From an uncultured Christensenellaceae bacterium (GTDB lineage Bacteria > Bacillota > Clostridia > Christensenellales > CAG-1252), in the NCBI GenBank assembly GCA_964561145.1, contig CAZLNZ010000005.1:3449-67448 (forward strand): a stretch of 64,000 nt of DNA. The letters run 5' to 3'. Every line of letters starts with the position of its first letter. The first letter of the stretch is position 1. The position numbers and the translations under genes were made by a program. A model generated the notes under the pieces. That model was not told where the DNA came from and did no database searches. It was given only the letters and a program-made list of their open reading frames with translations. This document shows, piece by piece, positions 52,507 to 64,000 of the stretch.

Positions 52507-52516
52507 GGAGGAGTAT

Positions 52517-53371
52517 ATGAACAGAAAAGCGATGCTAATCACTTCAGCTTTATTGTGTACGGTTATCTGCGGATTGATAATCGGCTTTTCTCTTGCTTGG
52601 TTTAGTATCGACCTTCGTGCCGGAACAGATAGCTTAACTTTTAATATATCTTCTGATATAGAAATGGTTGTAGCTTTTGCCCCCGATGATTTAAAAATTA
52701 ATTTAACCCCCGCAAAGGCAAATAAAGGTGCCGTTGCTGCCGGCTTAACCATAGGCGAGGGTGCCGACGTTTTGACGACAAATCAAGATAAGTATATCGA
52801 CGAACCGGCAACGATAGGTGTAGCCAAAGCATCGATGTTATATCTTGGTTCTTCGGGAGGTGTTTCATCGAACTATCGAATGAAGGTTTCTTGCGGAATG
52901 TATACAGGCGAAACGGGCGGAGTGAATATTGCAAGCGATATTAATTACATGGTTTTTGCTTGTGGTACAGGCTTTATAATGGATGATGCATGGCTCTTGG
53001 GTAACGTAGAAAACTCAAAGGTTAGAGAGATAAATTCACAATATCGTACGAGAATAGAAGAGGAAATTTACGACGAACAATCAAAACAGTTTGTATCCTA
53101 CAATTTCCAAAATGATATAAATGATAATGCGTATTATCTATTGGATACCAATATAAAAAGCCCCTCCTTATTAAAGGAATTTGGCATAAAGGGCGTGTGG
53201 AATAACGGTGAACTTGCACAGTCGAGCTATACGATTGTTCAAGAAAAAATGAATTTCCAATTTTTGGTAATAGCGTGGTATAATCGGGTTGACGAGCTGT
53301 TAGATCCTGAAATACAAGCATCGGACATTATAGTTATTTCATTGGGTATCTCAAAGGACGGAGGAAACTGA
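52517..53371 (+). CDS. 284-aa exported protein, TasA/camelysin-like in size and N-terminal motif (hypothesis)
   Basis: ATG follows AAGGAGGAG (52505-52513) and lies 10 nt after the upstream stop. The N-terminus is MNRKAMLITSALLCTVICGLIIGFSLAWFSIDLRAGTDSLTFNISS. The C-terminal part ...MNFQFLVIAWYN... recalls the alternating beta pattern at the end of TasA-family proteins. Confidence 0.8.
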   Translation: MNRKAMLITSALLCTVICGLIIGFSLAWFSIDLRAGTDSLTFNISSDIEMVVAFAPDDLKINLTPAKANKGAVAAGLTIGEGADVLTTNQDKYIDEPATIGVAKASMLYLGSSGGVSSNYRMKVSCGMYTGETGGVNIASDINYMVFACGTGFIMDDAWLLGNVENSKVREINSQYRTRIEEEIYDEQSKQFVSYNFQNDINDNAYYLLDTNIKSPSLLKEFGIKGVWNNGELAQSSYTIVQEKMNFQFLVIAWYNRVDELLDPEIQASDIIVISLGISKDGGN

Positions 53372-53373
53372 TT

Positions 53374-55695
53374 ATGATAAAAGCTTCAAGACAAACAATA
53401 ACCATCGTGTGTATAGTAGTTGCAATTGTATTGGTTGTATCCTCTGTAAGTATCGGTTTAGCCTATTGGTCACAACAGATTAAGGCAAATACCAGCTTTT
53501 CCGATAATGCCGACTTCAATGCTTCGGAACGTGATTTGATTTTTCAGCCCTTGGATTCGAATAGAGAACTAATAAACTTTCAATCTTATGATCCTGCAAT
53601 TCACGGAAGTCTAGAGTATTCCTCCTTGACTGAAACCGAGATTATGCTTTATTACAGCGAAAATGCGGGACAAACCGGAAAAATGGCAACACATGAACAG
53701 ATTAAGAGTGCAAAGGAAGACTTTGATCTGAACGGTAATTATAGCGGATTGTATGTGTCGGGAGATCCGATTTTGTATAATCAAGATATTCACGGAAGTT
53801 TGCGTTACAGCTCTTATACCTCTTCGGGTATGCAAATCTATTCTTCCGAAGATATGCCAGCTAGCGATTATGATATAGCCAGCTATTTCAAAGGGGAGAT
53901 CTATTCTTATCTTGTATATGATAACGGATATGTATCCTATGATCCTAACATTGCAAGTGATGTAAAAAAATACGGATATTTGTATTATAACAGCGAAACA
54001 GAAACAGATTCGGAAACCGGTTACGAACTGAGAGTTTTAATAGATGGCAGCTATATGGTTGTTACTCGCAGTACATGTCCCAAGCTCGATAAATTATATG
54101 TTACCACTTTTGTTCAATACGATCCGACCTATAACGGTCAAATAGTTCATAGCAAGCAAACCTCATTGGGCTATACCCTTTATTACAGCGAGGATTACGT
54201 TGAAAACGGACAGGTTATGTCAATTGCCATAACCAGAGCTCCTTACCAAACACAGTATGCCGTAAACGAGCCTCTAAATACCACAGGTCTAATTGTTACC
54301 GCGACCTATGAGGATTCCTCGGAGCGTGCAGTTTACGGTTATACCTGCTCAGGCTATACTACAGCAGATTTAGGGCAAGCTACCGTCACTGTAACTTATA
54401 GAGGTAAGACTGCAAGCTTCGATATCGAAATCGTCAACTTTAATTATATTTATTTTGACTGTCTGGATGGTGATTGGTGGTACGAGGACGATGCAATAAC
54501 AAAATGTAAACTTACCTTTGATGACGGGACCACAGACTCTGAGGAAGCATTGGGTGAAGTTATGTCAAAGCAAGAAAAGGGTTTGAAATTGTTTTATACA
54601 AGATATGCTGATAACAAAACAGTTAGCTCCGTTATCATTAACAGAATCAATCCTGCAAATGAAAATGTGGTTTGGGATGAGGCTGTAAGCCTTGCAGATA
54701 ATGAATACTCCTTGGAAAACAACTTGTTAAGGCTTAACGGTGTATCCTCCGCCGAGTGGGTCGCTTATGAAAGCGAAAAGAATTATGTTTATATGGATGT
54801 TGGCTCAGACCACAGAGAACTTGGTGCCTCTGATTCAGGCTGGCTTCAAGACGGAGCCGGTGTATATTGTTATATTGTTTATGATGGTGGAGATGAAAAT
54901 GCTTCTTTCCCCGGAGAACGAATGGAGGAAAGGAAGATATCTTCTGTAAATAGCATTCTCCGTCTTTATGTCGGCACAAAAGCAGTTACAAAGATCGTAT
55001 TTGTAAGATGCTCTACTCAAAATCCTGAATTGGAAGAGAATCAATACAATCGTACAGGTGATCTTTCTTATGACCGAGACTATAACGTCTTTTCCTTTAC
55101 CGATTACAATAGTTTCAGCTCATTCTCCTATGAATGGCTGAATATAGAGGGGAATCCCAATCTAAGCGAGGCAGGCGGAGAAGGGGAGGCAAGTGTTACG
55201 GGGAAATGTACCCTTACCGAGTTCCACGTTGCTCTTGAGAATGAGATAGTAGAGGGATACAATTTATATGTAGGCGGCAATATTGTTGCTTTTGCGGTTG
55301 TAGGCTATTCCGGTACGGTTTCTGATGTCATTATTCCTGCTACACATAAATCCGACAATCTGGCTAAAGAGTATGACGTTGTAATGATCGGTGCAAGTCC
55401 CGATTATCCTAACCAGTCTATGGGCGGCAATGCTTTGATTACCTCCTTAGTTATAGGTGCAAATGTAGATACCATTGCCGATGCAGCCTTTAGATCAATG
55501 GATAATCTTGTCAAAGTAACGGTAAACGGTGTCGGACGTCTCGAACTTGGACGGTATTGCTTTGCAGGTTGTTCAAAGCTTAGCGTGGTATCCTCAGGGA
55601 AAACCCTCTATGATTATGAAGGTAAGATGATTACTAACGACAATGCAAGGAACAATGCCTTCTTTGCTTGCATTAACGTTATAATTGAAGATTAA
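53374..55695 (+). CDS. 773-aa exported multidomain protein: SipW-type-like N-terminus, Tyr-rich modules, Big_3-type Ig-like domain, two CBM25/26-like modules, BspA-type LRR
   Basis: ATG lies 2 nt after the upstream TGA, with GGAGG at 53360-53364. The N-terminus is MIKASRQTITIVCIVVAIVLVVSSVSIGLAYWSQQIKAN. A Big_3-like segment, ITRAPYQTQYAVNEPLNTTGLIVTATYEDSSERAVYGYTCSGYTTADLGQATVTVTYRGKTASFDIEIV, occupies 54229-54435. The C-terminal sequence ...VSDVIIPATH...GNALITSLVIGANVDTIADAAFRSMDNLVKVTVNG...LGRYCFAGCSKLSVV is typical of the BspA-type LRR (LRR_5). Confidence 0.85.
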   Translation: MIKASRQTITIVCIVVAIVLVVSSVSIGLAYWSQQIKANTSFSDNADFNASERDLIFQPLDSNRELINFQSYDPAIHGSLEYSSLTETEIMLYYSENAGQTGKMATHEQIKSAKEDFDLNGNYSGLYVSGDPILYNQDIHGSLRYSSYTSSGMQIYSSEDMPASDYDIASYFKGEIYSYLVYDNGYVSYDPNIASDVKKYGYLYYNSETETDSETGYELRVLIDGSYMVVTRSTCPKLDKLYVTTFVQYDPTYNGQIVHSKQTSLGYTLYYSEDYVENGQVMSIAITRAPYQTQYAVNEPLNTTGLIVTATYEDSSERAVYGYTCSGYTTADLGQATVTVTYRGKTASFDIEIVNFNYIYFDCLDGDWWYEDDAITKCKLTFDDGTTDSEEALGEVMSKQEKGLKLFYTRYADNKTVSSVIINRINPANENVVWDEAVSLADNEYSLENNLLRLNGVSSAEWVAYESEKNYVYMDVGSDHRELGASDSGWLQDGAGVYCYIVYDGGDENASFPGERMEERKISSVNSILRLYVGTKAVTKIVFVRCSTQNPELEENQYNRTGDLSYDRDYNVFSFTDYNSFSSFSYEWLNIEGNPNLSEAGGEGEASVTGKCTLTEFHVALENEIVEGYNLYVGGNIVAFAVVGYSGTVSDVIIPATHKSDNLAKEYDVVMIGASPDYPNQSMGGNALITSLVIGANVDTIADAAFRSMDNLVKVTVNGVGRLELGRYCFAGCSKLSVVSSGKTLYDYEGKMITNDNARNNAFFACINVIIED

Positions 55696-55703
55696 TTGAA
55701 AAG

Positions 55704-58466
55704 TTGAAAAGGCAACTACCCAAAAATATAATACTGATTATTTTAACAGCTTGTTTCTTACTCCTTGCATTAGGTGTTTCTCTTGTCAGCTATAGTATTG
55801 TTTTAAATAAAAAACCAACCGCACCGACTGTTCCTAATAAACCGCAGGATATTGAAGAAAACCCCGAGTTAACCTATGTTGAAAGAATAGCAAAAAGTTA
55901 CACTTGTACTTTTTATGATGATAGCTATCACATCATTACCTTGGAAAAGGATTGTACCTTTGTTTTGAAAAACAGAGGAGTAGTTTTAGAAAAGGGAAGC
56001 TTTACAGTACAAGCCGATGGCACTATCAATTTGACTCTGTTTGGGGAGAAGTATTTACTAAAGCCCGATCTGCTTAAAAGTCTGATGCTTATGGTGGCGG
56101 TGCCTATCGGTGATTATACAGAGTACTCGAATCAGGTCGGAGAATTTGTGTACAAACTCAGATTGTATAATGAGGGCTATGCAAGACTCTTTTTAGAGGG
56201 GAATACCTTTAATGTGTATGGAAGTTATGGTGTGGATGGTGAAAAATGCACCGTAACCTTTTTAAACGAGAAAACCCTTTTTGCATTGTATAAGGAAAAC
56301 GGATCAAATAGGTTTAAAGATTATAGTCAATATGAAAGAAACTTTTATTTGGGCGACTATGAGTGTTCCTTTATGAATAATGCAACATTGACGTTATATG
56401 AAGGATCCTTTAGAATACATAACGGAAATACCTTATTCGAAGGTGATTCCTATGAGCTTGATGACGATGAGCTGTGTTTATATATCGGTGGTACCAAGTT
56501 GTTTATCGATATCTATAGCGATAACTGCAAGAGGGCTTCGCTCAAGGATATTACTGAGGGCGAGGGTGAGACTTACTTATATTATTCAAAAGATTATAAT
56601 GAGGATTATTACTTTACTTTTTATTCCACAAATGGCACCTATAAGATGACTTCGACCTCTATGGGCTATACCTTATATGGTTATTATAAATTTTTTTCTC
56701 AGAATCGTTATTACGTAATGTGTTTGAAAAATAGTGCCATGGTTGTTATTGAGAATGGTAAGCTTTATCTTGCTAGTGAATATGTTGAAGATACGAGAGA
56801 GAAGTTTTCTTTTGAGAATAATGACGGTGTTTGTAATTACGAATTGTCTGTTTCGAGTGACGGAACTTTTACTCTTGTACGTAAAACACAAAATATTACA
56901 GGGGATGAACATAAGGGTACTTATACAATAAATCCTTACGGCATAGTATTATCCAACAGCTTTTATGGAATTTTCAAGGACAAGATTGTTGTTTTAGATT
57001 ATGAAAATCACCTGTTTGCTTTAGTTAAATACTATCAATATACCGATTATAACGGAAAGAATTATTATCTCAAACAAATAGCGGTAAATAATGATACCGA
57101 CGAGTTTGTATTAAGCTCTTCCTTTGATTCTCAAGAATTTGCAAGAGCTACATTCGATAAAAACAATTTGAAAGAAGGTTTTAGATTTTTAGGAAATAAT
57201 GAAGATGAACTAATATGGGTATCGGGAGATATCTTTGTCTACGTGGAGAGCTTGTTGGGAAAATACTATTATAACGATAGCGGAATAGACTATTTATTGC
57301 TTTTAAAAGATTTGTCCTACGAGTTAAGTATTAACGGATATCAAGAGAAAGGATTCTATAATATAATCGATGGGCAGCTGATTTTGGATAACGAAACCTA
57401 TGTAACCTTGGCTTCAAACCGTTTTTCCTTTACTAAAGATAGAATAACGAAGGTGGAATGCACCCTTCCTAATATGATAGTAAAAGGGGAAGATGTAAAA
57501 CTTTCCGAATATACCATAACATTACATACCCTTTTAGGGAACGTATACCATACTTCATTAGATAAAGTATCGGTTGAGAAACTTCGCACGGATATTGCGG
57601 GCGATTTTGAATGTAGGATTGTATTTAGGGACTATACCTATATGCATAGCTATAAGGTTATAGAAGAATCTCCTTCCTATTTAGCGGTAGTAAATCTACC
57701 TGACACTGTAAATTTCGGGGAGGGTATTAATCTTTCTAATGCCGTCGTAAATGTAATAAGCGATTTTGGCAGAGTGATGTTTTCTTCTGCGATAAGAGAA
57801 GATATGTTTGTCGATTTAGATTTATCTTCAATTGGAAGCAAGAGTTCTATATTATGCTATATGGGCTTGACCTATACATATTATTATACAGTTGTTAGTG
57901 ATGTTTATGATGTTGAAATTGTCGGATTAACAATGTCGAAAAATGTCTTTTCAGTTGGTGAAGAAATAGATCTTACGGGTGCAAGAATAAGGATTAGGAC
58001 AAATCTAAACACCTTCCGCTACGAAAGAGTAACTCTTGACATGCTCGTCGGTTTTTCAACAGCGAATGCCTGCTATGGGGTATTTATAGTTGAATACAAC
58101 GGGATGAGATATGTTGGGTCATCTTATATAGTAAAGTCAATACCTCGAAGCTATGAATTAACGGTAGATGTCGTTTTGTCAACAGTAGCAGGAGTAGAAA
58201 GCGATATTCAATATATGACCAATGCTTACTTTGTGGCACTTTCTGACGGAAAATATAGGTTCGAAAGTAAATCTCAATATGGAATACGGGCTTATTTGTA
58301 TGATGAGAACATGACCTTATTGGCATACGATTATGCCGGAAGCGAGAACAGTGTTGACTTTGTTATAGAGTATTCCCTAAAACAAGGAGAAATGGTAAGA
58401 CTTTACTATCGAGTTGACTCCGATAGTGACGAGGAGATTGAAATAATCGCAACCCGAATTGGTTAG
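55704..58466 (+). CDS. 920-aa membrane-anchored protein: N-terminal TM, Pro-rich linker, repeated beta modules, three Big_3-like Ig domains, PPC-like C-terminal domain
   Basis: The only in-frame start near the 5' end of the ORF is TTG 55704, 8 nt after the upstream TAA. The SD is weak, so translational coupling is likely. The N-terminus is MKRQLPKNIILIILTACFLLLALGVSLVSYSIVLNKKPTAPTVPNKPQD. Ig-like repeats at ~57440-58145 include VEIVGLTMSKNVFSVGEEIDLTGARIRIRTNLNTFRYERVTLDMLVGF...YGVFIVEYNGMRYVGSSYIV. The C-terminal sequence YFVALSDGKYRFESKS...AYLYDENMTLLAYDYAGSENSVDFVIEYSLKQGEMVRLYYRV resembles the pre-peptidase C-terminal (PPC) fold pattern. Confidence 0.8.
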   Translation: MKRQLPKNIILIILTACFLLLALGVSLVSYSIVLNKKPTAPTVPNKPQDIEENPELTYVERIAKSYTCTFYDDSYHIITLEKDCTFVLKNRGVVLEKGSFTVQADGTINLTLFGEKYLLKPDLLKSLMLMVAVPIGDYTEYSNQVGEFVYKLRLYNEGYARLFLEGNTFNVYGSYGVDGEKCTVTFLNEKTLFALYKENGSNRFKDYSQYERNFYLGDYECSFMNNATLTLYEGSFRIHNGNTLFEGDSYELDDDELCLYIGGTKLFIDIYSDNCKRASLKDITEGEGETYLYYSKDYNEDYYFTFYSTNGTYKMTSTSMGYTLYGYYKFFSQNRYYVMCLKNSAMVVIENGKLYLASEYVEDTREKFSFENNDGVCNYELSVSSDGTFTLVRKTQNITGDEHKGTYTINPYGIVLSNSFYGIFKDKIVVLDYENHLFALVKYYQYTDYNGKNYYLKQIAVNNDTDEFVLSSSFDSQEFARATFDKNNLKEGFRFLGNNEDELIWVSGDIFVYVESLLGKYYYNDSGIDYLLLLKDLSYELSINGYQEKGFYNIIDGQLILDNETYVTLASNRFSFTKDRITKVECTLPNMIVKGEDVKLSEYTITLHTLLGNVYHTSLDKVSVEKLRTDIAGDFECRIVFRDYTYMHSYKVIEESPSYLAVVNLPDTVNFGEGINLSNAVVNVISDFGRVMFSSAIREDMFVDLDLSSIGSKSSILCYMGLTYTYYYTVVSDVYDVEIVGLTMSKNVFSVGEEIDLTGARIRIRTNLNTFRYERVTLDMLVGFSTANACYGVFIVEYNGMRYVGSSYIVKSIPRSYELTVDVVLSTVAGVESDIQYMTNAYFVALSDGKYRFESKSQYGIRAYLYDENMTLLAYDYAGSENSVDFVIEYSLKQGEMVRLYYRVDSDSDEEIEIIATRIG

Positions 58467-58502
58467 TGATTGAAGGTGCTTTATTATAAATGGAGGTATG
58501 TT

Positions 58503-59027
58503 ATGGAATTCCAAACAGAAAGACTGGTTTTACGCCCTTGGCAGGAGAGTGATGCTGAAGAGCTCTATAAATATGCAAGTGATCCCGATATCGGACTGTC
58601 TGCCGGATGGAAACCCCATATCGATGTCGAAAACAGTAGGGAAATAATCCTAAATGTATTGTGCAAACCTGAAACCTATGCCATTTGTTTAAAAGAGAGC
58701 GAAAAAGCAATCGGCAGTATAGGTTTCCACCACAATGACTTATTTCCCGACGAATATGAACTTGGTTATTGGATAGGAAAACCCTTTTGGGGTCAGGGGT
58801 TTGTTCCCGAGGCGTCTCGAGAACTTTTACGTTACGCTTTTGAGAATCTTGATATGAATCGTATATGGTGTGCTTATTTCGAAGGGAATGCCAAAAGTCG
58901 CCGTGTTCAAGAAAAACTCGGTTTTGAATATCATCATACCACCGAAGGCGTTCGTATAAAGCAACTAGGCGAATTCCGTACCGCCCACTTTTCGCTACTA
59001 ACCAAGGAGCGTTACTTTTCCCTATAA
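58503..59027 (+). CDS. GNAT family N-acetyltransferase (RimJ/RimL-like)
   Basis: ATG 58503 lies 6 nt after GGAGG (58492-58496). The protein begins MEFQTERLVLRPWQESDAEELYKYASDPDI and continues ...IGSIGFHHND...ELGYWIGKPFWGQGFVPEASRELLRYAFENLDMNRIWCAYFEGNAKSRRVQEKLGFEY, which is the typical GNAT RimJ/L-type pattern. I prefer ATG 58503 to the ORF-finder's TTG at 58470. Confidence 0.85.
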   Translation: MEFQTERLVLRPWQESDAEELYKYASDPDIGLSAGWKPHIDVENSREIILNVLCKPETYAICLKESEKAIGSIGFHHNDLFPDEYELGYWIGKPFWGQGFVPEASRELLRYAFENLDMNRIWCAYFEGNAKSRRVQEKLGFEYHHTTEGVRIKQLGEFRTAHFSLLTKERYFSL

Positions 59028-59105
59028 TACAACTACTAAACTTTTTAAGTATTCTATATTTCTTACAAAAAATCAGTGAGGAAATAAAAAGATTTTTAAA
59101 AGGGA

Positions 59106-59135
59106 TTGACACAGGGTAGTGCTCGGTAATATAAT
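59106..59135 (+). promoter_or_regulatory. Sigma-70/SigA-type promoter of the aro leader
   Basis: A perfect -35 TTGACA (59106-59111) and a perfect -10 TATAAT (59130-59135) are separated by an 18-nt spacer. The promoter sits ~27 nt upstream of the leader-peptide ATG. Confidence 0.7.
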
Positions 59136-59161
59136 TAATCTATAAACGTAAGGAATATAGT

Positions 59162-59233
59162 ATGACAAGCTTAAAACAATTTGGCACTTCTTATACCTTC
59201 TACTTTAGCTACTTCTTTTTTGCAAAGAAGTAA
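59162..59233 (+). CDS. 23-codon Phe/Tyr-rich attenuation leader peptide MTSLKQFGTSYTFYFSYFFFAKK
   Basis: ATG 59162 is preceded by AAGGA (59150-59154), and the stop is TAA 59231-59233. The peptide has 6 Phe and 3 Tyr, and 8 of the 10 residues from position 11 to 20 are Phe or Tyr. It lies directly upstream of a terminator/antiterminator and of aromatic amino-acid biosynthesis genes. Confidence 0.7.
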   Translation: MTSLKQFGTSYTFYFSYFFFAKK

Positions 59234-59237
59234 TTTT

Positions 59238-59287
59238 GAGTGTGGTATAAAATCCGAGTTGCTTTTATGGCTTTAAAGACCACACTC
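59238..59287 (+). promoter_or_regulatory. Antiterminator helix of the aro attenuator
   Basis: GAGTGTGGT (59238-59246) is perfectly complementary to ACCACACTC (59279-59287), giving a 9-bp helix. Its 3' arm overlaps the 5' arm of the terminator, so the two structures are mutually exclusive. The 5' arm starts 5 nt after the leader stop codon, within the footprint of a terminating ribosome. Confidence 0.65.
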
Positions 59288-59307
59288 AACAGAGCGTGGT
59301 CTTTTTT
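59275..59307 (+). terminator. Rho-independent terminator (attenuator) upstream of aroF
   Basis: The hairpin is AAAGACCAC-a-CTC-AACA-GAG-c-GTGGTCTTT: 12 bp with one A/C mismatch and a tetraloop. It runs into a T-tract (59302-59307) and lies 17 nt before the aroF ATG. Confidence 0.8.
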
Positions 59308-59323
59308 AAAAAGGAGATATATT

Positions 59324-60337
59324 ATGATAGTTGCACTGAAAAAGAATGTCGAGGAAATACAGGTTGACAATCTTATTAATTGGATTAAATCTATAGGCTT
59401 AACCGTTCATATAAGCCGTGGTGATAGTAATACCATAGTAGGCTTAATCGGTGATACAGCGAAGGTGGATATCGATCTTTTGCGTTCATTGGATATAGTA
59501 GAGTCGGTAACCCGCATTCAAGAGCCATATAAAAATGCTAACAGAAAATTTCATCCTCAAAATACGGTAGTTGATGTATGTGGTCATACTTTTGGCAACA
59601 GTAATTTTCCTATTATTGCCGGTCCTTGTTCCGTTGAGAGTTACGAACAGGTTTTGGCGATCGCAAAGGCGGTCAAAGCATCGGGTGCAAGTATATTAAG
59701 AGGAGGTGCCTTTAAACCTCGTACTTCTCCCTATTCTTTCCAGGGCTTAGGTTGTGACGGTTTGGAAATTTTAAGAGCTGTTAGAAAGGAAACCGGGATG
59801 CCTATTATAACGGAAATAACGTCGGAAAAGTATATAAAAGAGTTTATGGACGTTGATATAATTCAAGTAGGTGCAAGGAATATGCAAAACTTCGAGCTTC
59901 TAAAGGCTTTGGGACGGACGGAAAAAACCATTCTATTAAAAAGAGGCTTAAGTGCAACAATAGAGGAGTGGCTTATGAGTGCGGAATACCTTATGGCGGG
60001 TGGTGCGAGAAATGTAATCCTCTGCGAAAGAGGAATTAGAACCTTTGAGCCCATGACAAGAAACACTCTGGATTTATCTGCGATACCCCTTGTAAAAGAG
60101 AAAACGCATTTGCCGGTTATCGTTGATCCTAGCCATGCCTCCGGCTTGAATAGGTTGGTAAGACCCATGTCGTTAGCAGCAGTCGGAGCGGGTGCAGATG
60201 GACTGATAATCGAGGTTCATAACGATCCTCCTCATGCACTTTCTGACGGAGCTCAATCCTTGCGTCCCGATCAGTTTGACGAGGTTGTAAAAGCTATAGA
60301 TATAATGCTTCCTATCGTTGGTAAAAAGAGAGGATAA
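59324..60337 (+). CDS. aroF: 3-deoxy-7-phosphoheptulonate (DAHP) synthase, class I-beta, with N-terminal ferredoxin-like/ACT-like regulatory domain
   Basis: ATG 59324 follows AAGGAG. The N-terminal ~70 aa, MIVALKKNVEEIQVDNLINWIKSIGLTVHISRGDSNTIVGLIGDTAKVDIDLLRSLDIVESVTRIQEPYK, closely resemble the regulatory domain of Thermotoga maritima DAHPS as I recall it. The catalytic motifs KPRTSPYSFQG, VGARNMQN and VDPSH are present. I rejected the ORF-finder's GTG at 59240 because it lies inside the attenuator. Confidence 0.9.
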   Translation: MIVALKKNVEEIQVDNLINWIKSIGLTVHISRGDSNTIVGLIGDTAKVDIDLLRSLDIVESVTRIQEPYKNANRKFHPQNTVVDVCGHTFGNSNFPIIAGPCSVESYEQVLAIAKAVKASGASILRGGAFKPRTSPYSFQGLGCDGLEILRAVRKETGMPIITEITSEKYIKEFMDVDIIQVGARNMQNFELLKALGRTEKTILLKRGLSATIEEWLMSAEYLMAGGARNVILCERGIRTFEPMTRNTLDLSAIPLVKEKTHLPVIVDPSHASGLNRLVRPMSLAAVGAGADGLIIEVHNDPPHALSDGAQSLRPDQFDEVVKAIDIMLPIVGKKRG

Positions 60338-60338
60338 T

Positions 60339-61211
60339 ATGAATATCGGTATCATAGGATTGGGACTGATAGGCGGTTCAATAGGCCGTGCCGCCAAAAA
60401 GAAAACCTCACACAAGGTTTTTGGCTTGGATATCGACAAAGAGGTTATGTTAAAGGCCAGACTTTGTATTGCCATCGATGAAGAACTTAACGATGATAAT
60501 CTTGCCGATATTGATTTGCTTATATTATCCCTGTATCCGGATACTGCAATAAAGGTTATGAGAGAGTCTCTTCCGAAACTTAAGAAGGGTGCTATTGTGA
60601 TAGACTGTTGCGGAACAAAAAGAAAAATAGTCAACGCTATGGAGGAATTAAAGAAAGATTATCCTCATATAGAATTTGTCGGAGTGCACCCTATGGCAGG
60701 AAGAGAGTTTTCGGGAATATCTCATGCTATTCCTACGTTGTTTGAAAACGGGTATGTAATAATGACACCGGTTTATTCGGATATTGCTACATTGGCTTCG
60801 GTAAAGGGCTTTTTTATGGAGTTGGGGGCTTGTGGCGTTGAGGTTGCGTCAAAGGAAAAGCATGATACAATGATAGCATATACATCGCAGTTGGCACATG
60901 TATTATCCTCAAGCTATATTAAAAGTGAATTATCCGATAGCTATACGGGCTTTTCTGCAGGAAGCTTCAGAGATATGACAAGGGTTGCAAAGCTTAACCC
61001 TCAAATGTGGACAGAACTCTGTCTTGAGAATGCAGACAATCTTGTTATACGAATTGATGAGCTCATTCAACATCTTTCGGAGTATAGAGATGCATTGAAG
61101 GCTGGAAACGAAGCGGATCTTTATAAGCTTTTCTTGGAGGGTACCGAGATGAAGGCTAAAGCCGACGAGCTGATGAAGGAGAGAAAGAGAAATGATAAAA
61201 ATCAAGGTTGA
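60339..61211 (+). CDS. tyrA: Prephenate dehydrogenase
   Basis: ATG 60339 lies 1 nt after the aroF TAA and is preceded by AGAGAGGA. The protein has the Rossmann motif MNIGIIGLGLIGGSIG, the HPMAGRE motif and ...AYTSQLAHVLS.... Confidence 0.85.
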   Translation: MNIGIIGLGLIGGSIGRAAKKKTSHKVFGLDIDKEVMLKARLCIAIDEELNDDNLADIDLLILSLYPDTAIKVMRESLPKLKKGAIVIDCCGTKRKIVNAMEELKKDYPHIEFVGVHPMAGREFSGISHAIPTLFENGYVIMTPVYSDIATLASVKGFFMELGACGVEVASKEKHDTMIAYTSQLAHVLSSSYIKSELSDSYTGFSAGSFRDMTRVAKLNPQMWTELCLENADNLVIRIDELIQHLSEYRDALKAGNEADLYKLFLEGTEMKAKADELMKERKRNDKNQG

Positions 61212-62235
61212 GACCGAACCTCTTTATAATGTCTATATAAACGGCGGTTTGCTTTCCGATAGCGAATTCATAGCAACAGAATTAAAAAGCTATAAAAAAT
61301 TAATGGTGGTAACAGATTCAAATGTGGCACCGTTATATCTACGGACTCTTCTTTCCGCCTTGAAGACGATTCCTGTTGATATTTATTCGTATGTCGTTGA
61401 AGCCGGTGAGTTATCGAAGTCGATAGATTCTTTTTCCAAGATACTAAGTTATGCAGTTGAGTGCGGCTTGACCAGAGGGGATGCATTTATTGCATTAGGC
61501 GGCGGTGTGGTAGGTGACTTGACGGGCTTTATTGCGGCAAACTATATGAGAGGGGTGGACTTCTATCAAGTTCCCACGACCCTCCTTGCGGCAATAGATT
61601 CTTCTGTAGGCGGAAAGACTGCAATAAATCTTCCGGAGGGTAAAAATCTTGTAGGCGCTTTTCATCAGCCAAGGGGCGTATTTTTTGATATTGACACATT
61701 GAAAACCCTTCCCGAAGAAGAGTGGAAATGCGGCTTGGGAGAAGCAATAAAGTATGCAGCCCTTGCCGGCGGAAGGATTTATGACATAATAAGCGATGGA
61801 GTGAACGATGATAATATTCAAGAACTCATTGCTTTATGTATTGAGTACAAAGCCATGATTGTAAAGTCTGATGAAAAGGATGACGGCATAAGAAAAATTC
61901 TTAATTTGGGTCATACCGTAGGTCACGCAATAGAGAAGCTTTCGGGCTTTACTATAAAACACGGTGTTGCTGTAGCACAGGGATTACAGGCAATTGTCAA
62001 ATATCAAACAAAGGAAGGGAGCTTGTCGAGAAGTGAGGCAAATAAGCTTTCTCACATAATAGACAAATATCACTTTAGCTATGTAAATCCATATCCGCTA
62101 TCTAGTATTGTCGGTTGTATATCAAAGGATAAAAAAAGTTTGGGCGGCGGAGAAATTGAATTGATCAAGCTGAAGGAAATAGGAAAACCTTTTGTTGAAA
62201 ATGTTAAAATCGAAACACTTGGAGCACTTTTATAA
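61192..62235 (+). CDS. aroB: 3-dehydroquinate synthase
   Basis: The motifs GGGVVGDLTGFIAA, VPTTLLAAIDSSVGGKTAINL and LNLGHTVGHAIE are present. The gene overlaps the 3' end of tyrA by 20 nt. Confidence 0.9.
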   Translation: MIKIKVETEPLYNVYINGGLLSDSEFIATELKSYKKLMVVTDSNVAPLYLRTLLSALKTIPVDIYSYVVEAGELSKSIDSFSKILSYAVECGLTRGDAFIALGGGVVGDLTGFIAANYMRGVDFYQVPTTLLAAIDSSVGGKTAINLPEGKNLVGAFHQPRGVFFDIDTLKTLPEEEWKCGLGEAIKYAALAGGRIYDIISDGVNDDNIQELIALCIEYKAMIVKSDEKDDGIRKILNLGHTVGHAIEKLSGFTIKHGVAVAQGLQAIVKYQTKEGSLSRSEANKLSHIIDKYHFSYVNPYPLSSIVGCISKDKKSLGGGEIELIKLKEIGKPFVENVKIETLGALL

Positions 62236-63488
62236 TGATAAAGATATATCCGTCAAAAATATCCGGAGAGGTTAGAATTCCCTCCTCGAAATCCGTTGCT
62301 CACAGAGAACTAATAGCAGGCTTTTTAAGCGGACAACCTTTTTCTATATTCGGTAGCTTTACATCTAGTGACATCGATACTACAATGCATTGTTTAGATA
62401 GCCTTGGCGGTTGCTTTGAGGTTAATGATGATCATACAAGTATTTCGCTCGTAGGATATAAAGACATAAACAAACCTCTCCTTGATGCAAGGGATAGTGG
62501 CTCTACCTTGAGGTTTCTTCTTCCTGTAGTTTCGGCTTTAGGCGTAGAGTGTAGTATGATAGGAACGGAAAGACTTTCTTTAAGACCGATAGGCGAACTT
62601 CTTTCCGTGCTTACCGCTAATGGCGGAAACTATTCCTCGAACAGATTGCCGTTGAAAGTCGGCGGAATTCTTCACGGCGGTGATTACCAAATAGATGCAG
62701 GAATAAGTTCGCAATTTATAACGGGCTTGTTGTTTGCACTTCCTTTATTGAAGGAGAACAGTAGAATTATTTACAAGAATCCATTGGTTTCCTCTAATTA
62801 TGTGGATATAACCTTAGAATGTTTGTTAAGACACGGAATTCAAGTAAAAAAAGAGTCTTACGGTTTCAATATCAAGGGCAATCAAAGCTATATATCGCAG
62901 AAAAGCCTTGAAATAGAAGGCGACTGGAGCTCTGCCTGCTTTATGGCGTGCTTGGGTGCGGTTAGCGGAAAGGTTTTATTGACAGGCTTGAATCACAATT
63001 CCACTCAAGGGGATAGAATCATCGTTGAGTTCTTAAAGCGAATTGGTGCTAAGGTTGAATATACCTCAAAGGGCTTATGTATTCAAAAGGATAGGATTAG
63101 ACCTATAGAGATCGATGCGGAAAACTATCCCGATATTGTCCCTGTATTGGCGGCGACCCTTGCTTTTGCCGATGGGAAATCTATAATTCACGGAGTTGAT
63201 CGTTTAAGAATTAAGGAAAGTGATCGCATCGCTGAAATTATAGAGCTATTAAGTTGTTTTGGCATCAATGCAGAGTACTCGGACGATACTTTAGTGATTT
63301 ACGGTGGATATGTTACAGGAGGAGTATATCACTCTCCGAATGACCATAGAATGGCAATGAGCTTTGCATTGTTGGCTATAGGAGGAAACGGTGAGAGTGT
63401 AATAGACGGAGAAGAGTGTGTGAAAAAGTCGTATGCAAATTTCTTTGAGGAACTAAAAAAGCTTGGAGGTAAGTATGAGTGCCTTTGA
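62235..63488 (+). CDS. aroA: 3-phosphoshikimate 1-carboxyvinyltransferase (EPSP synthase)
   Basis: The motifs IPSSKSVAHRELIAG, DSGSTLRFLLP, LSLRPIGELL, SSQFITGLLFALP, RIKESDRI and DHRMAMSFALLA are present. The start shares a TAATG overlap with the aroB stop. Confidence 0.9.
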   Translation: MIKIYPSKISGEVRIPSSKSVAHRELIAGFLSGQPFSIFGSFTSSDIDTTMHCLDSLGGCFEVNDDHTSISLVGYKDINKPLLDARDSGSTLRFLLPVVSALGVECSMIGTERLSLRPIGELLSVLTANGGNYSSNRLPLKVGGILHGGDYQIDAGISSQFITGLLFALPLLKENSRIIYKNPLVSSNYVDITLECLLRHGIQVKKESYGFNIKGNQSYISQKSLEIEGDWSSACFMACLGAVSGKVLLTGLNHNSTQGDRIIVEFLKRIGAKVEYTSKGLCIQKDRIRPIEIDAENYPDIVPVLAATLAFADGKSIIHGVDRLRIKESDRIAEIIELLSCFGINAEYSDDTLVIYGGYVTGGVYHSPNDHRMAMSFALLAIGGNGESVIDGEECVKKSYANFFEELKKLGGKYECL

Positions 63489-64000
63489 TAAGTTGAGGGT
63501 CGAGATATACGGAGAATCGCACGGAGATTTAATCGGGCTTAAGCTTTATGGTCTACCAAAAAACTTTAAGGTTGATATTCCTTCGTTGACTTCTTTTGTC
63601 GAGAGAAGAAAAAGTGGCAACAATTCGTGGTCTACACCAAGAAGAGAAGGCGACTCTTTTGAGTTCTTATCGGGAATAAATGAAGATATGACCGACGGAG
63701 ATGTGCTTGAGGTGGTAATAAAGAACACAGATAAAAAAAGTGAGGATTATAATGAATTGGCATATACCCCCAGACCCTCGCATGCCGATTATGTAGCAAC
63801 GGTAAAGGACGGAGTTCCTGCGTGTCCTAAGGGAGGCGGTCGTTTTTCCGGTCGTCTTACAGCTCCATTGGTGGTAGCAGGAGGAATTGCAAAGCAAATT
63901 CTTGAGGAGAGAGGAATCGAAGTTTTATCGTATATTCGCAAAATCGGCGAAATAAGCGGCGAAAGTTACCTAACCGAAGAGATTACAGCCGAGGATATAA
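63475..64000 (+). CDS. aroC: Chorismate synthase, 3'-truncated by the window end
   Basis: ATG 63475 lies 5 nt after GGAGG (63465-63469) and overlaps the aroA end by 14 nt. Frame 1 is open to the window edge. The sequence is MSAFDKLRVEIYGESHGDLIGLKLYGLP...RPSHADY...GGGRFSGRLTAPLVVAGG. The gene is missing from the ORF track only because it has no stop codon in the window. Confidence 0.85.
   Translation, partial: MSAFDKLRVEIYGESHGDLIGLKLYGLPKNFKVDIPSLTSFVERRKSGNNSWSTPRREGDSFEFLSGINEDMTDGDVLEVVIKNTDKKSEDYNELAYTPRPSHADYVATVKDGVPACPKGGGRFSGRLTAPLVVAGGIAKQILEERGIEVLSYIRKIGEISGESYLTEEITAEDI

Follow-up and report, generated by a model that had tools for sequence, protein, structure and literature searches.

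A leader peptide rich in Phe and Tyr codons and a predicted ribosome-mediated attenuator ahead of the aroF operon of an uncultured Christensenellaceae bacterium

Leader peptides with aromatic codons are already known ahead of aroF, the gene for DAHP synthase. In the actinobacterium Corynebacterium glutamicum, the aroR leader, with a minimal F-Y-F motif directly upstream of aroF, has been shown experimentally to attenuate that gene (Neshat et al., 2014; PMC11802643; PMC4046766). The control is described as ribosome-mediated attenuation that is derepressed on aromatic amino-acid limitation, although limitation for Phe alone had an effect (PMC11802643). In Acholeplasma and in environmental sequences, the uORFC-13-1 motif is found solely ahead of aroF (Brewer et al., 2021; PMC8632094). 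It consists of a uORF with promoter, ribosome-binding site and start codon, a U-run that codes for Phe, and an adjoining intrinsic terminator, and it also has an extra base-paired element (PMC8632094). In E. coli, the pheL-pheA and pheM-pheST leaders (RF01859) follow the logic of a short Phe-codon ORF, alternative 1:2, 2:3 and 3:4 pairings and an intrinsic terminator. In low-GC Gram-positives, leader-peptide attenuation is known to stand in place of T-boxes (PMC2965389; PMC9413887; PMC5794164), as at hisZ/hisS in the Bacillus cereus group, his in Peptostreptococcaceae and Erysipelotrichales, and ilv-leu in Staphylococcus aureus. The usual controls of the aromatic pathway in Bacilli are T-boxes and TRAP (PMC1262725).

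We have analyzed a stretch of 64,000 nucleotides (the window) from an uncultured Christensenellaceae bacterium, in which aroF is preceded by what is very probably a classical ribosome-mediated transcription attenuator, sensing charged tRNA-Tyr and tRNA-Phe and controlling aroF-tyrA-aroB-aroA-aroC. As in the published accounts of aroR, Phe and Tyr leader codons lie directly upstream of aroF and the same mechanism is predicted, but the codons make up eight of ten positions, and the C. glutamicum element has been demonstrated by experiment whereas ours is a prediction. The window leader shows no evident sequence relationship to aroR, and the two probably arose independently. In context and layout it agrees with uORFC-13-1, which also comes from a Firmicutes-related lineage, although that motif, defined from 24 sequences, has "at least one" codon for Phe and lacks a Tyr component while the window has both; the taxa differ as well (Acholeplasma as against Christensenellales and Oscillospirales here), and the comparison is one of layout, not of consensus. 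The E. coli leaders are gamma-proteobacterial, control pheA or pheST rather than aroF, and use Phe as the only regulatory codon. The attenuators of the other Firmicutes belong to the same class as the window element but serve His or Leu and other operons, none of them aromatic. The mechanism is thus not new, Phe/Tyr leaders ahead of aroF having been published for Corynebacterium and a uORF motif for Acholeplasma; the window element is a well-supported further case of it, and the norm in its clade. The promoter and the leader ORF comprise the following:

59106..59135, plus strand, sigma-70-type promoter (TTGACA 59106-59111, spacer 18 nt, TATAAT 59130-59135)
59150..59154, plus strand, Shine-Dalgarno sequence of the leader, AAGGA, 7 nt ahead of the ATG
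59162..59233, plus strand, leader peptide ORF of 23 codons and TAA (ATG at 59162, TAA at 59231-59233), product MTSLKQFGTSYTFYFSYFFFAKK
59192..59221, plus strand, regulatory codon run, codons 11-20 (Y T F Y F S Y F F F), the proposed stalling zone

The promoter matches the consensus at 12 of 12 positions, as a preliminary description of this DNA had claimed, and a promoter scan found no other such match in 58000-64000. Both hexamers are retained in two close relatives, L161 and L164. Transcription would start at about 59142, and the leader Shine-Dalgarno sequence is unpaired in the minimum free energy (MFE) fold; translation of the ORF is predicted. The ORF was likewise confirmed in coordinates and sequence, its run holding five Phe and three Tyr codons; among 1,542 small ORFs in the six frames of the window, it alone reaches eight F/Y/W codons in ten. 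A second F/Y-rich ORF, at 52063-52170 on the minus strand, sits within a plus-strand gene and was set aside as a chance match. All the sequence features in the preliminary description were indeed found where it had placed them. Downstream of the run, and partly overlapping it, are the elements of a switch:

59167..59184, plus strand, 5' strand of an outer long-range helix (3' strand 59254-59273) that closes the segment 1:2 structure in the MFE fold
59191..59205, plus strand, segment 1 (in the MFE fold, its UUAUACC at 59191-97 and its CUACU at 59201-05 are paired with 59238-59250)
59210..59232, plus strand, hairpin of 9 bp (UACUUCUUU / AAAGAAGUA) in the 3'-terminal part of the ORF, with AUUUUG after it
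59238..59246, plus strand, segment 2, the antiterminator 5' arm GAGUGUGGU, beginning 5 nt past the stop codon
59275..59307, plus strand, intrinsic terminator AAAGACCACACTCAACAGAGCGTGGTCTTTTTT, segments 3 and 4, -16.9 kcal/mol and then six U (5' arm 59275-59287; loop AACA; 3' arm 59292-59304; U-tract 59302-59307)
59312..59316, plus strand, Shine-Dalgarno sequence of aroF, AGGAG, outside the terminator

The leader folds far more stably than shuffled versions of itself (MFE -47.9 kcal/mol as against -29.7 +/- 3.6; z = -5.09), none of 200 shuffles equaling it. The antiterminator arm GAGTGTGGT (59238-59246) is the perfect complement, over 9 bp, of ACCACACTC (59279-59287), and the duplex has an energy of -15.1 kcal/mol against -6.0 +/- 2.0 with shuffled upstream sequence (z = -4.5). 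Since ACCACACUC (59279-87), within the terminator 5' arm, is common to both pairings, terminator and antiterminator are mutually exclusive. The coordinates and pairing given earlier for both hold; a simple terminator scan nonetheless left 59275-59307 unflagged, because an A.C mismatch breaks the stem. The Shine-Dalgarno sequence of aroF lies outside the terminator, and control is therefore on transcription and not on access to the ribosome-binding site. The 8-bp hairpin noted at the end of the leader (ACTTCTTT/AAAGAAGT) is present in the MFE fold and is 85% paired in ten relatives (helix 5, 59210-59232) without compensatory changes; it is a candidate RNA-polymerase pause hairpin. A weaker pairing of TTATACC with GGTATAA had been proposed as a 7-bp anti-antiterminator. 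It too is present in the MFE fold, and the two helices of segment 1 (helices 3 and 4) are 80% and 84% paired in the ten relatives, the 7-bp pairing itself 80%, but the anti-antiterminator turns out to be larger than 7 bp: in the MFE fold the whole leader ORF pairs back onto 59238-59273. The outer part of this structure (helices 1 and 2) is just 50-60% paired in relatives, and because of this poor conservation it is uncertain whether it matters.

Covariation argues in favor of the two alternative hairpins. A protein search brought up closer relatives but no aroF locus of Acholeplasma or C. difficile. In a clean alignment (A7) of ten close relatives, whose AroF proteins are 80-97% identical, pairing of the antiterminator amounts to 95.6% in register and to 26-59% when slid, and three of its pairs are compensated on both sides, with changes from G-C to A-U and from A-U to G-C. 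The terminator has five doubly changed pairs. For either helix none of 500 shuffles reaches the observed score, the scores being inflated by the relatedness of the sequences and by the derivation of the structure from the window's own sequence. In three of the relatives (L171, L168, and L163) there are three-way changes that span segments 2, 3 and 4. Compensatory changes, which the preliminary description had proposed to look for, are accordingly found in both helices at this distance. In a more distant subset of 15 sequences (A4), the terminator again covaries (0 of 500 shuffles) while covariation of the antiterminator is not significant (100 of 500). Two MAFFT alignments of distant leaders (A2 and A3) misplace segment 3 and were excluded.

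How the switch might depend on the ribosome was examined by simulating co-transcriptional folding of the transcript up to 59290 under a ribosome mask, a procedure that tests geometry only. With the ribosomal A-site on any of codons 2-22, all nine antiterminator pairs form (pair probability 0.94-1.0); without a ribosome, or with one at codon 23 or the stop codon, none of the nine does. The trp/pheA-type geometry that had been suggested for this leader is thus supported. A folding comparison of the two structures, also suggested earlier, gave -47.9 kcal/mol for the terminator state and -32.1 kcal/mol for its mutually exclusive alternative, so that the former is favored once all four segments are present. 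The switch must therefore be kinetic and, being kinetic, needs coordination of RNA polymerase with the ribosome. Transcription in B. subtilis is largely uncoupled from translation ("runaway"), and such coordination is consequently not to be assumed in a Firmicute.

From these elements the following course of events can be envisaged, in which stalling, hairpin pausing and the response to Phe/Tyr supply are predictions from the sequence. The consensus promoter would give a transcript from about 59142, and a ribosome would load onto the 23-codon leader. With an ample supply of Phe and Tyr, the ribosome would reach the stop codon (59231-33) and cover segment 2 (59238-46); after its release, segment 2 would return to its pairing with segment 1, where the F/Y codons lie. 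Segment 3 would then be free for segment 4, the terminator would form and RNA polymerase would halt in the U-tract (59302-07). With Tyr- or Phe-tRNA in short supply, the ribosome would stall within 59192-59221, holding segment 1 open and leaving segment 2 uncovered. The 2:3 pairing of 9 bp would then precede the synthesis of segment 4, no terminator would form and the operon would be transcribed. Pairing with segment 1 is expected to sequester the antiterminator 5' arm whenever the run is free of a ribosome; if the leader is not translated, the 1:2 structure would form and termination would follow by default. Sensing of a free amino acid by the nascent peptide, as in TnaC, was rejected, since a biosynthetic operon would then be switched on by an abundance of its own product.

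The simulation also bears on what is sensed. As a stall at any of codons 2-22 antiterminates, Phe/Tyr specificity rests solely on codon composition. By the same token, the ORF and its hairpins could act as a generic reporter of ribosome slowing, whether from starvation or from antibiotics, and antibiotic-sensing ribosome-mediated attenuators are documented in Firmicutes, bmrCD and vmlR being examples. We consider this unlikely. The Phe/Tyr run is the sole peptide property conserved across 138 loci, and the runs of 59 related leaders contain 212 Tyr and 187 Phe codons but a single Trp codon, with TAC and TAT used about alike. The genes controlled belong to aromatic biosynthesis, and a conserved arrest motif such as antibiotic-sensing leaders have is absent.

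The comparison of loci covered 154 aroF loci with sufficient upstream sequence, metagenome loci included, from Christensenellales, Oscillospiraceae and others. A Phe/Tyr-rich small ORF lies upstream of aroF in 138 of them, and in 135 of these 138 leaders it is followed by a terminator (a hairpin and T-run within 130 nt of the stop codon). The distance from stop codon to U-tract has a median of 61 nt in related leaders (interquartile range 55-68) and is 68 nt in the window. ORFs with at least six F/Y codons in ten precede aroF at 63 of 79 genome loci, as against 30 of 2,352 control windows (1.3%). Alignment of orthologous leaders, another of the checks proposed at the outset, shows that the run is kept while the rest of the peptide, which varies in length from 14 to 44 residues, drifts. 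Even in a relative of 96-97% identity, five N-terminal residues differ, the only change inside the run being F13 to Y. The preliminary description had regarded leader-peptide attenuation as unusual here; among Christensenellales and Oscillospiraceae it is instead the rule at aroF.

The structural side of the class was followed in the 59 related leaders. The antiterminator arm begins 0-10 nt past the stop codon in Christensenellales relatives. At 56% of the 59 loci, compared with 24% of shuffles, upstream sequence sequesters 70% or more of the terminator 5' arm. The simulated switch, taken as the value with a ribosome on the run less that with one at the stop codon, has a mean of 0.19 compared with 0.01 in shuffles. 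When the terminator 5' arm was paired with upstream sequence locus by locus (RNAduplex), the window and, individually, 13 of the 59 loci gave a significant result, in a test that is underpowered for short GC-rich arms; the contrast between own-locus and cross-locus pairing is small (-8.8 and -7.6 kcal/mol).

Since T-boxes and TRAP usually govern the aromatic pathway in Bacilli, it could be supposed that the ORF is incidental and that the U/A/C-rich tract and hairpins form a translation-independent riboregulator binding a protein, a tRNA or a small molecule. Sub-threshold Rfam matches to Leu_leader and PyrR architectures might be read in the same way, but they reflect only the generic arrangement of a hairpin and a terminator, the best in the window, Leu_leader (RF00512), scoring 25 bits against a threshold of 50. 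No Rfam 15 family attains its gathering threshold, either in the window or in 20 related loci; Phe_leader (RF01859) has no match in the window even at E <= 10, the T-box model (RF00230) matches neither the window nor the 20 loci, and the window has no T-box sequence. A TRAP site calls for about 9-11 (G/U)AG triplets spaced 2-3 nt apart, whereas the window has six scattered ones, in chains never longer than one, and no aptamer-like fold is conserved besides the alternative hairpins. Furthermore, the run varies freely in RNA sequence from one lineage to another while the ATG-initiated F/Y frame persists, with an SD-like motif before the ATG in 40 of the 59 related leaders. In the other two frames, an ATG ORF is present in merely 6 and 0 of the 59, although this frame test is partly circular, the loci having been picked by their F/Y ORF. 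We regard a riboregulator as very unlikely. Several features that characterize a ribosome-mediated attenuator are present together: an ORF with Shine-Dalgarno sequence, start and Phe/Tyr codons, a terminator, an antiterminator exclusive of it, a fold dependent on the ribosome in simulation, and conserved codons.

Longer versions of the ORF have been deposited as genes for "hypothetical" or "uncharacterised" proteins on at least 1,000 contigs, and one may ask whether the 23-residue product is a small functional hydrophobic peptide with a terminator of its own, aroF being served by leak-through or by another promoter. Some leader peptides do have functions in trans, for example peTrpL. Yet neither sequence nor length is conserved beyond the aromatic content, and Pfam and NCBIfam scans of three leader peptides gave no match. 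The ORF is always directly upstream of aroF with a fixed spacing from stop codon to terminator, and the promoter scan found no second promoter between 59233 and 59324. The terminator 5' arm, moreover, has a conserved covarying partner by the stop codon, which a gene-end terminator does not need. A peptide gene is in our view barely credible, and it is the attenuator that explains the recurrent small "hypothetical protein".

The genes downstream are in keeping with control by Phe and Tyr:

59324..60337, plus strand, aroF, DAHP synthase (type I-beta), the first regulated gene (PF00793, 2.8e-75; PF18152, 4.2e-22)
60339 to 61211, plus strand, tyrA, prephenate dehydrogenase (Pfam; start inferred from MNIGIIGLG)
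61192-62235, plus strand, aroB (Pfam)
62235-63488, plus strand, aroA (Pfam)
from 63475 and extending past the window end (64000), plus strand, a frame reading ..LRVEIYGESHG.., which we take to be chorismate synthase-like and hence aroC

The operon comprises the common aromatic pathway and tyrA, and the aroF product has an N-terminal ferredoxin-like regulatory domain (Pfam). In the DAHP synthase of Thermotoga, this domain mediates feedback inhibition by Tyr and Phe. Control by Phe and Tyr therefore fits the operon physiologically. Because Tyr and Phe codons are roughly equal in number, the runs suggest that one leader reads two amino acids at once. Tyr also stands beside Phe in pheM, the pheST leader peptide of E. 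coli.

How far these results can be extended is an evenly balanced matter. In the extended reading, the element is one of a large, lineage-wide class of Tyr/Phe-sensing attenuators, unannotated and, as far as we have found, undescribed, which would be the main means of controlling aroF transcription throughout the gut Christensenellales and Oscillospiraceae (as well as in at least some Lachnospiraceae and Anaerovoracaceae) in place of the T-boxes and TRAP of Bacilli. The kinetic requirement would then imply effective, probably pause-mediated coordination of ribosome and RNA polymerase in Firmicutes lineages, unlike the situation in B. subtilis. Since such attenuators need a ribosome that keeps pace with RNA polymerase, their wide conservation is indirect evidence on transcription-translation coordination in Clostridia. 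In concept the advance is a modest one, as the mechanism is in the textbooks. The analysis does provide a regulatory annotation of the aromatic amino-acid operon in gut Clostridia that are little studied and mostly uncultured, and it brings the aromatic pathway into the small set of leader-peptide attenuators known in Firmicutes. At 165 nt the element is compact, and it might find use in engineered anaerobes as a part that responds to Phe/Tyr.

The distance between leader and aroF is not the same everywhere. At eight loci (L036, L039, L040, L042, L043, L044, L047, and L053), an intact attenuator lies beyond 400-420 nt upstream and is followed by inserted repeats.

Re-reading the sequence bore out the main elements of the preliminary description, namely a promoter, a leader ORF rich in Phe and Tyr codons, a terminator and an antiterminator, together with two smaller pairings (an 8-bp hairpin at the ORF end, and 7 bp between 59191-97 and 59244-50). 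The elements and flanking genes are as follows.

ends 59027, GNAT acetyltransferase gene, upstream of the leader
59106-59135, + strand, sigma-70-type promoter, TTGACA-18 nt-TATAAT, 12/12 match
59150-54, + strand, leader Shine-Dalgarno AAGGA, 7 nt 5' of the ATG
59162 (ATG) to 59231-33 (TAA), + strand, leader ORF of 23 codons, MTSLKQFGTSYTFYFSYFFFAKK
59192-59221, + strand, F/Y run, codons 11-20, Y T F Y F S Y F F F
59238-46, + strand, antiterminator 5' arm (segment 2), GAGTGTGGT, exact complement of ACCACACTC at 59279-87
59275-59304, + strand, terminator hairpin, -16.9 kcal/mol, with six U at 59302-07
59312-16, + strand, aroF Shine-Dalgarno, 3' of the terminator
59324, + strand, ATG of aroF, after its Shine-Dalgarno; aroF, the first gene 3' of the leader, encodes a DAHP synthase with an N-terminal ferredoxin-like domain
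downstream of aroF, tyrA, aroB and aroA
from 63475, frame resembling chorismate synthase, extending past the window end

From this gene content, the leader heads an operon for the aromatic common pathway plus tyrosine. The promoter is the sole 12/12 match in 58000-64000, and among 1,542 small ORFs in the six frames of the window the leader ORF alone reaches 8 aromatic codons in 10. The next-best ORF, at 52063-52170 on the minus strand with 7 in 10, falls within a plus-strand gene and was rejected as a chance match. The 170-nt leader folds at -47.9 kcal/mol, compared with -29.7 +/- 3.6 in dinucleotide shuffles (z = -5.09, 0/200), and the antiterminator duplex at -15.1, compared with -6.0 +/- 2.0 kcal/mol when the upstream sequence is shuffled (z = -4.5).

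The minimum free energy (MFE) fold contains the pairings of the preliminary description but is more extensively paired: the entire leader ORF pairs back onto the 40 nt 3' of its stop. Its helices are these.

59167-84 with 59254-73, outer helix
59191-97 with 59244-50, inner helix of the 1:2 structure (F/Y-codon region with segment 2)
59201-05 with 59238-42, inner helix of the 1:2 structure
59210-18 with 59224-32, ORF-end hairpin, 9 bp

The F/Y-codon region thus sequesters segment 2 in the naked leader. ACCACACTC, its alternative partner, is the inner portion of the terminator 5' arm. The decision point was simulated with a transcript ending at 59290, which lacks the terminator 3' arm, and with 28 nt masked for each A-site position. 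Without a ribosome none of the nine antiterminator pairs formed. All nine formed (pair probability 0.94-1.0) for every A-site position from codon 2 to codon 22, and for codon 23 or the stop again none did. In the model this is the behaviour of a trp/phe-type attenuator, in which an untranslated leader would terminate by default. With all segments present, the two folds proposed earlier as alternatives differ widely, the terminator state at -47.9 and the enforced antiterminator state at -32.1 kcal/mol, so that the choice between them must be kinetic. The hairpin at 59210-32, followed by AUUUUG, would be a plausible pause signal.

Other known regulators were also considered. A T-box sequence and a TRAP-type triplet array were looked for and neither was found. 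A scan against Rfam 15, covering the window and 20 related loci, gave no family at threshold. In the window the highest sub-threshold score was that of Leu_leader, 25 bits against a threshold of 50; neither Phe_leader nor T-box matched there even at E <= 10.

The leader is widespread upstream of aroF. The comparison covered 80 aroF loci from species-representative genomes and as many from metagenomes. In the genome set, 63/79 upstream regions contain a small ORF in which at least 6 of 10 codons are aromatic, versus 30/2,352 control windows drawn from those same loci; raising the cut-off to at least 7 gives 46 and 4. With both sets combined and a 560-nt search window, 138/154 loci have an F/Y-rich ORF, and in 135 of these 138 a hairpin and T-run follow within 130 nt of the ORF stop. 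The stop-to-U-tract distance varies little, with a median of 61 nt (IQR 55-68) in related leaders, and is 68 nt in the window. Carriers include Christensenellaceae, Oscillospiraceae/Oscillibacter, one Lachnospiraceae MAG, Anaerovorax odorimutans and Yeguia hominis. Of the 16 loci scored negative, several still have a weaker F/Y ORF (e.g., NNYAYYYYQRG). An F/Y-rich ORF was not found in a few metagenome contigs, in two MAGs of Treponema type or in several MAGs of unclassified Clostridia/Bacillota.

In eight Christensenellaceae-type loci (L036, L039, L040, L042, L043, L044, L047, L053) the attenuator is complete (ORF ..YFYFYFN.., terminator GGCTTTGTAGTAATCGCTACAAAGCC with T-run) and lies 300-480 nt upstream of aroF. 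The intervening DNA holds 1-3 copies of a conserved ~100-nt repeat (..CTTCGCAATACTGCGTTACTGCTT..GCGAGCCTTGTCTTGCT..) without an Rfam match; a dispersed intergenic repeat and a second regulatory element are both conceivable. In a rabbit-gut Clostridia MAG (L018), a second, divergent aroF paralogue has its own F/Y leader, MKNKEMAFAYYFYFNYAS (minus strand, 2420-2476 in reverse-strand locus coordinates), and so both aroF copies carry the attenuator. In locus L171 (AroF 80% identical), aroF is followed not by tyrA but by a pheA-type chorismate mutase-prephenate dehydratase (1624-2220), indicating that the same leader type heads Phe-branch or Tyr-branch operons.

The peptides vary freely outside the run and are 14 to 44 aa long (e.g., MNNLTRSQFYFAFYYGYFFKKQSI, MKNLKSYFYFYFNNRFSISR, MTNITRSAEYRYFSFTYFYGKAYFGLAENVCDRV). 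In the 96-97% relatives five N-terminal residues are changed, and within the run only F13 to Y. The runs comprise 212 Tyr, 187 Phe and 1 Trp codons, with TAC and TAT used about equally. The ATG ORF is regular only in the F/Y frame, by a test that is partly circular. No Pfam or NCBIfam model matched the leader peptides; longer versions, where gene-called, are "hypothetical" or "uncharacterised" proteins, and one such protein is present on 1,000 contigs or more. Oscillospiraceae-type leaders (L061, L062, L069, L072, L074-L077, most of L097-L160) share a core ..FSFTYF(Y/F)GKAY.. that overlaps a strong hairpin within the ORF (AGCUUUACC ... GGUAAGGCU), and part of the peptide conservation is therefore probably conservation of RNA structure. 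Their antiterminator 5' arm lies within the 3' part of the ORF, not 3' of the stop. In A. odorimutans DSM 5092 (L052) the leader MTNCIFATEWYYVSFISYYWNKAYLSFTAKMHCYSS, about 102-213 nt upstream of aroF, differs from nearly all others in having two Trp codons in or beside its aromatic run, a composition that may let it sense Phe, Tyr and Trp alike.

No reliable alignment of distant leaders was obtained. Across a subset of 15 sequences, covariation is seen in the terminator (0/500 shuffles); the antiterminator is 74% paired in register versus 29-53% slid, with no significant covariation (100/500). A 10-sequence alignment including protein-search relatives (AroF 80-97% identical) gave the following.

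antiterminator, 95.6% in register versus 26-59% slid, 3 pairs changed on both sides, 0/500
terminator, 78.3% in register versus 35-55% slid, 5 pairs changed on both sides, 0/500
inner 1:2 helices and ORF-end hairpin, 80-85% paired, 0-2 both-side changes per helix
outer helix 59167-84/59254-73, 50-60% paired, 12 both-side changes

The whole 1:2 structure is 38-48% paired when slid and no shuffle of 500 reaches its score. All the scores from this alignment are raised by the relatedness of its sequences and by the use of the window's fold as the structure to be tested. Among these orthologs the F/Y run is kept, with compensatory changes in antiterminator and terminator. Three-way changes are visible in the raw sequences of segments 2, 3 and 4 (the last two being the terminator arms): GAGTGTGGT / ACCACACTC / GAG.CGTGGT in the window, AAGTGTGGTT / AACCGCACTT / GAGTGCGGTT in L168 and TTGATGTGGT / AACCGCATCAA / TTGATGCGGTT in L171. 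Family-wide, sequestration of the terminator 5' arm reaches 70% or more in 56% of loci versus 24% of shuffles, and the simulated run-minus-stop switch averages 0.19 versus 0.01. The family-wide pairing signal is real but modest.

Leader-peptide attenuation is a textbook mechanism. Fold, simulation, ORF conservation and covariation support, as far as computation reaches, the proposed ribosome-mediated control, and hence a predicted Phe/Tyr leader-peptide attenuator in the window. The aroF operon of C. glutamicum is under attenuation by the aroR leader (F-Y-F), which responds when Phe is limiting (PMC4046766; PMC11802643). The uORFC-13-1 motif, a predicted Phe uORF adjoining a terminator, occurs upstream of aroF only, in Acholeplasma and environmental sequences (Brewer et al., 2021). 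Premature termination in the aroF 5' UTR is recorded in C. difficile, with no mechanism proposed, and Firmicutes leader peptides are documented for histidine and leucine. The full texts searched held no description of a Phe/Tyr leader in Christensenellales/Oscillospirales, which is weak evidence since most subscription journals fell outside their scope. The element had been called unusual; this holds relative to Bacilli, but across its own clade such leaders are the rule. What stands out is the breadth of conservation in gut Clostridia and the predicted joint reading of Tyr and Phe, not the mechanism.

The window AroF is 86% identical to that of a Christensenellaceae MAG, and the nearest relatives place the organism in Christensenellales. 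Three quarters of the window is a single ORF of 16,508 codons (34-49560, + strand), whose listed TTG may not be the true start. With Listeria-Bacteroides repeat domains (PF09479, E = 6e-67) in the N-terminal 4,800 aa and a GLUG motif in the C-terminal part, its product appears to be a giant cell-surface or adhesin-like protein. Four more large ORFs follow head to tail (49573-58466, + strand; 977, 284, 773 and 920 aa), the last of them (55704-58466) Tyr/Asn-rich and without a Pfam match; they may be part of the same surface-protein locus.
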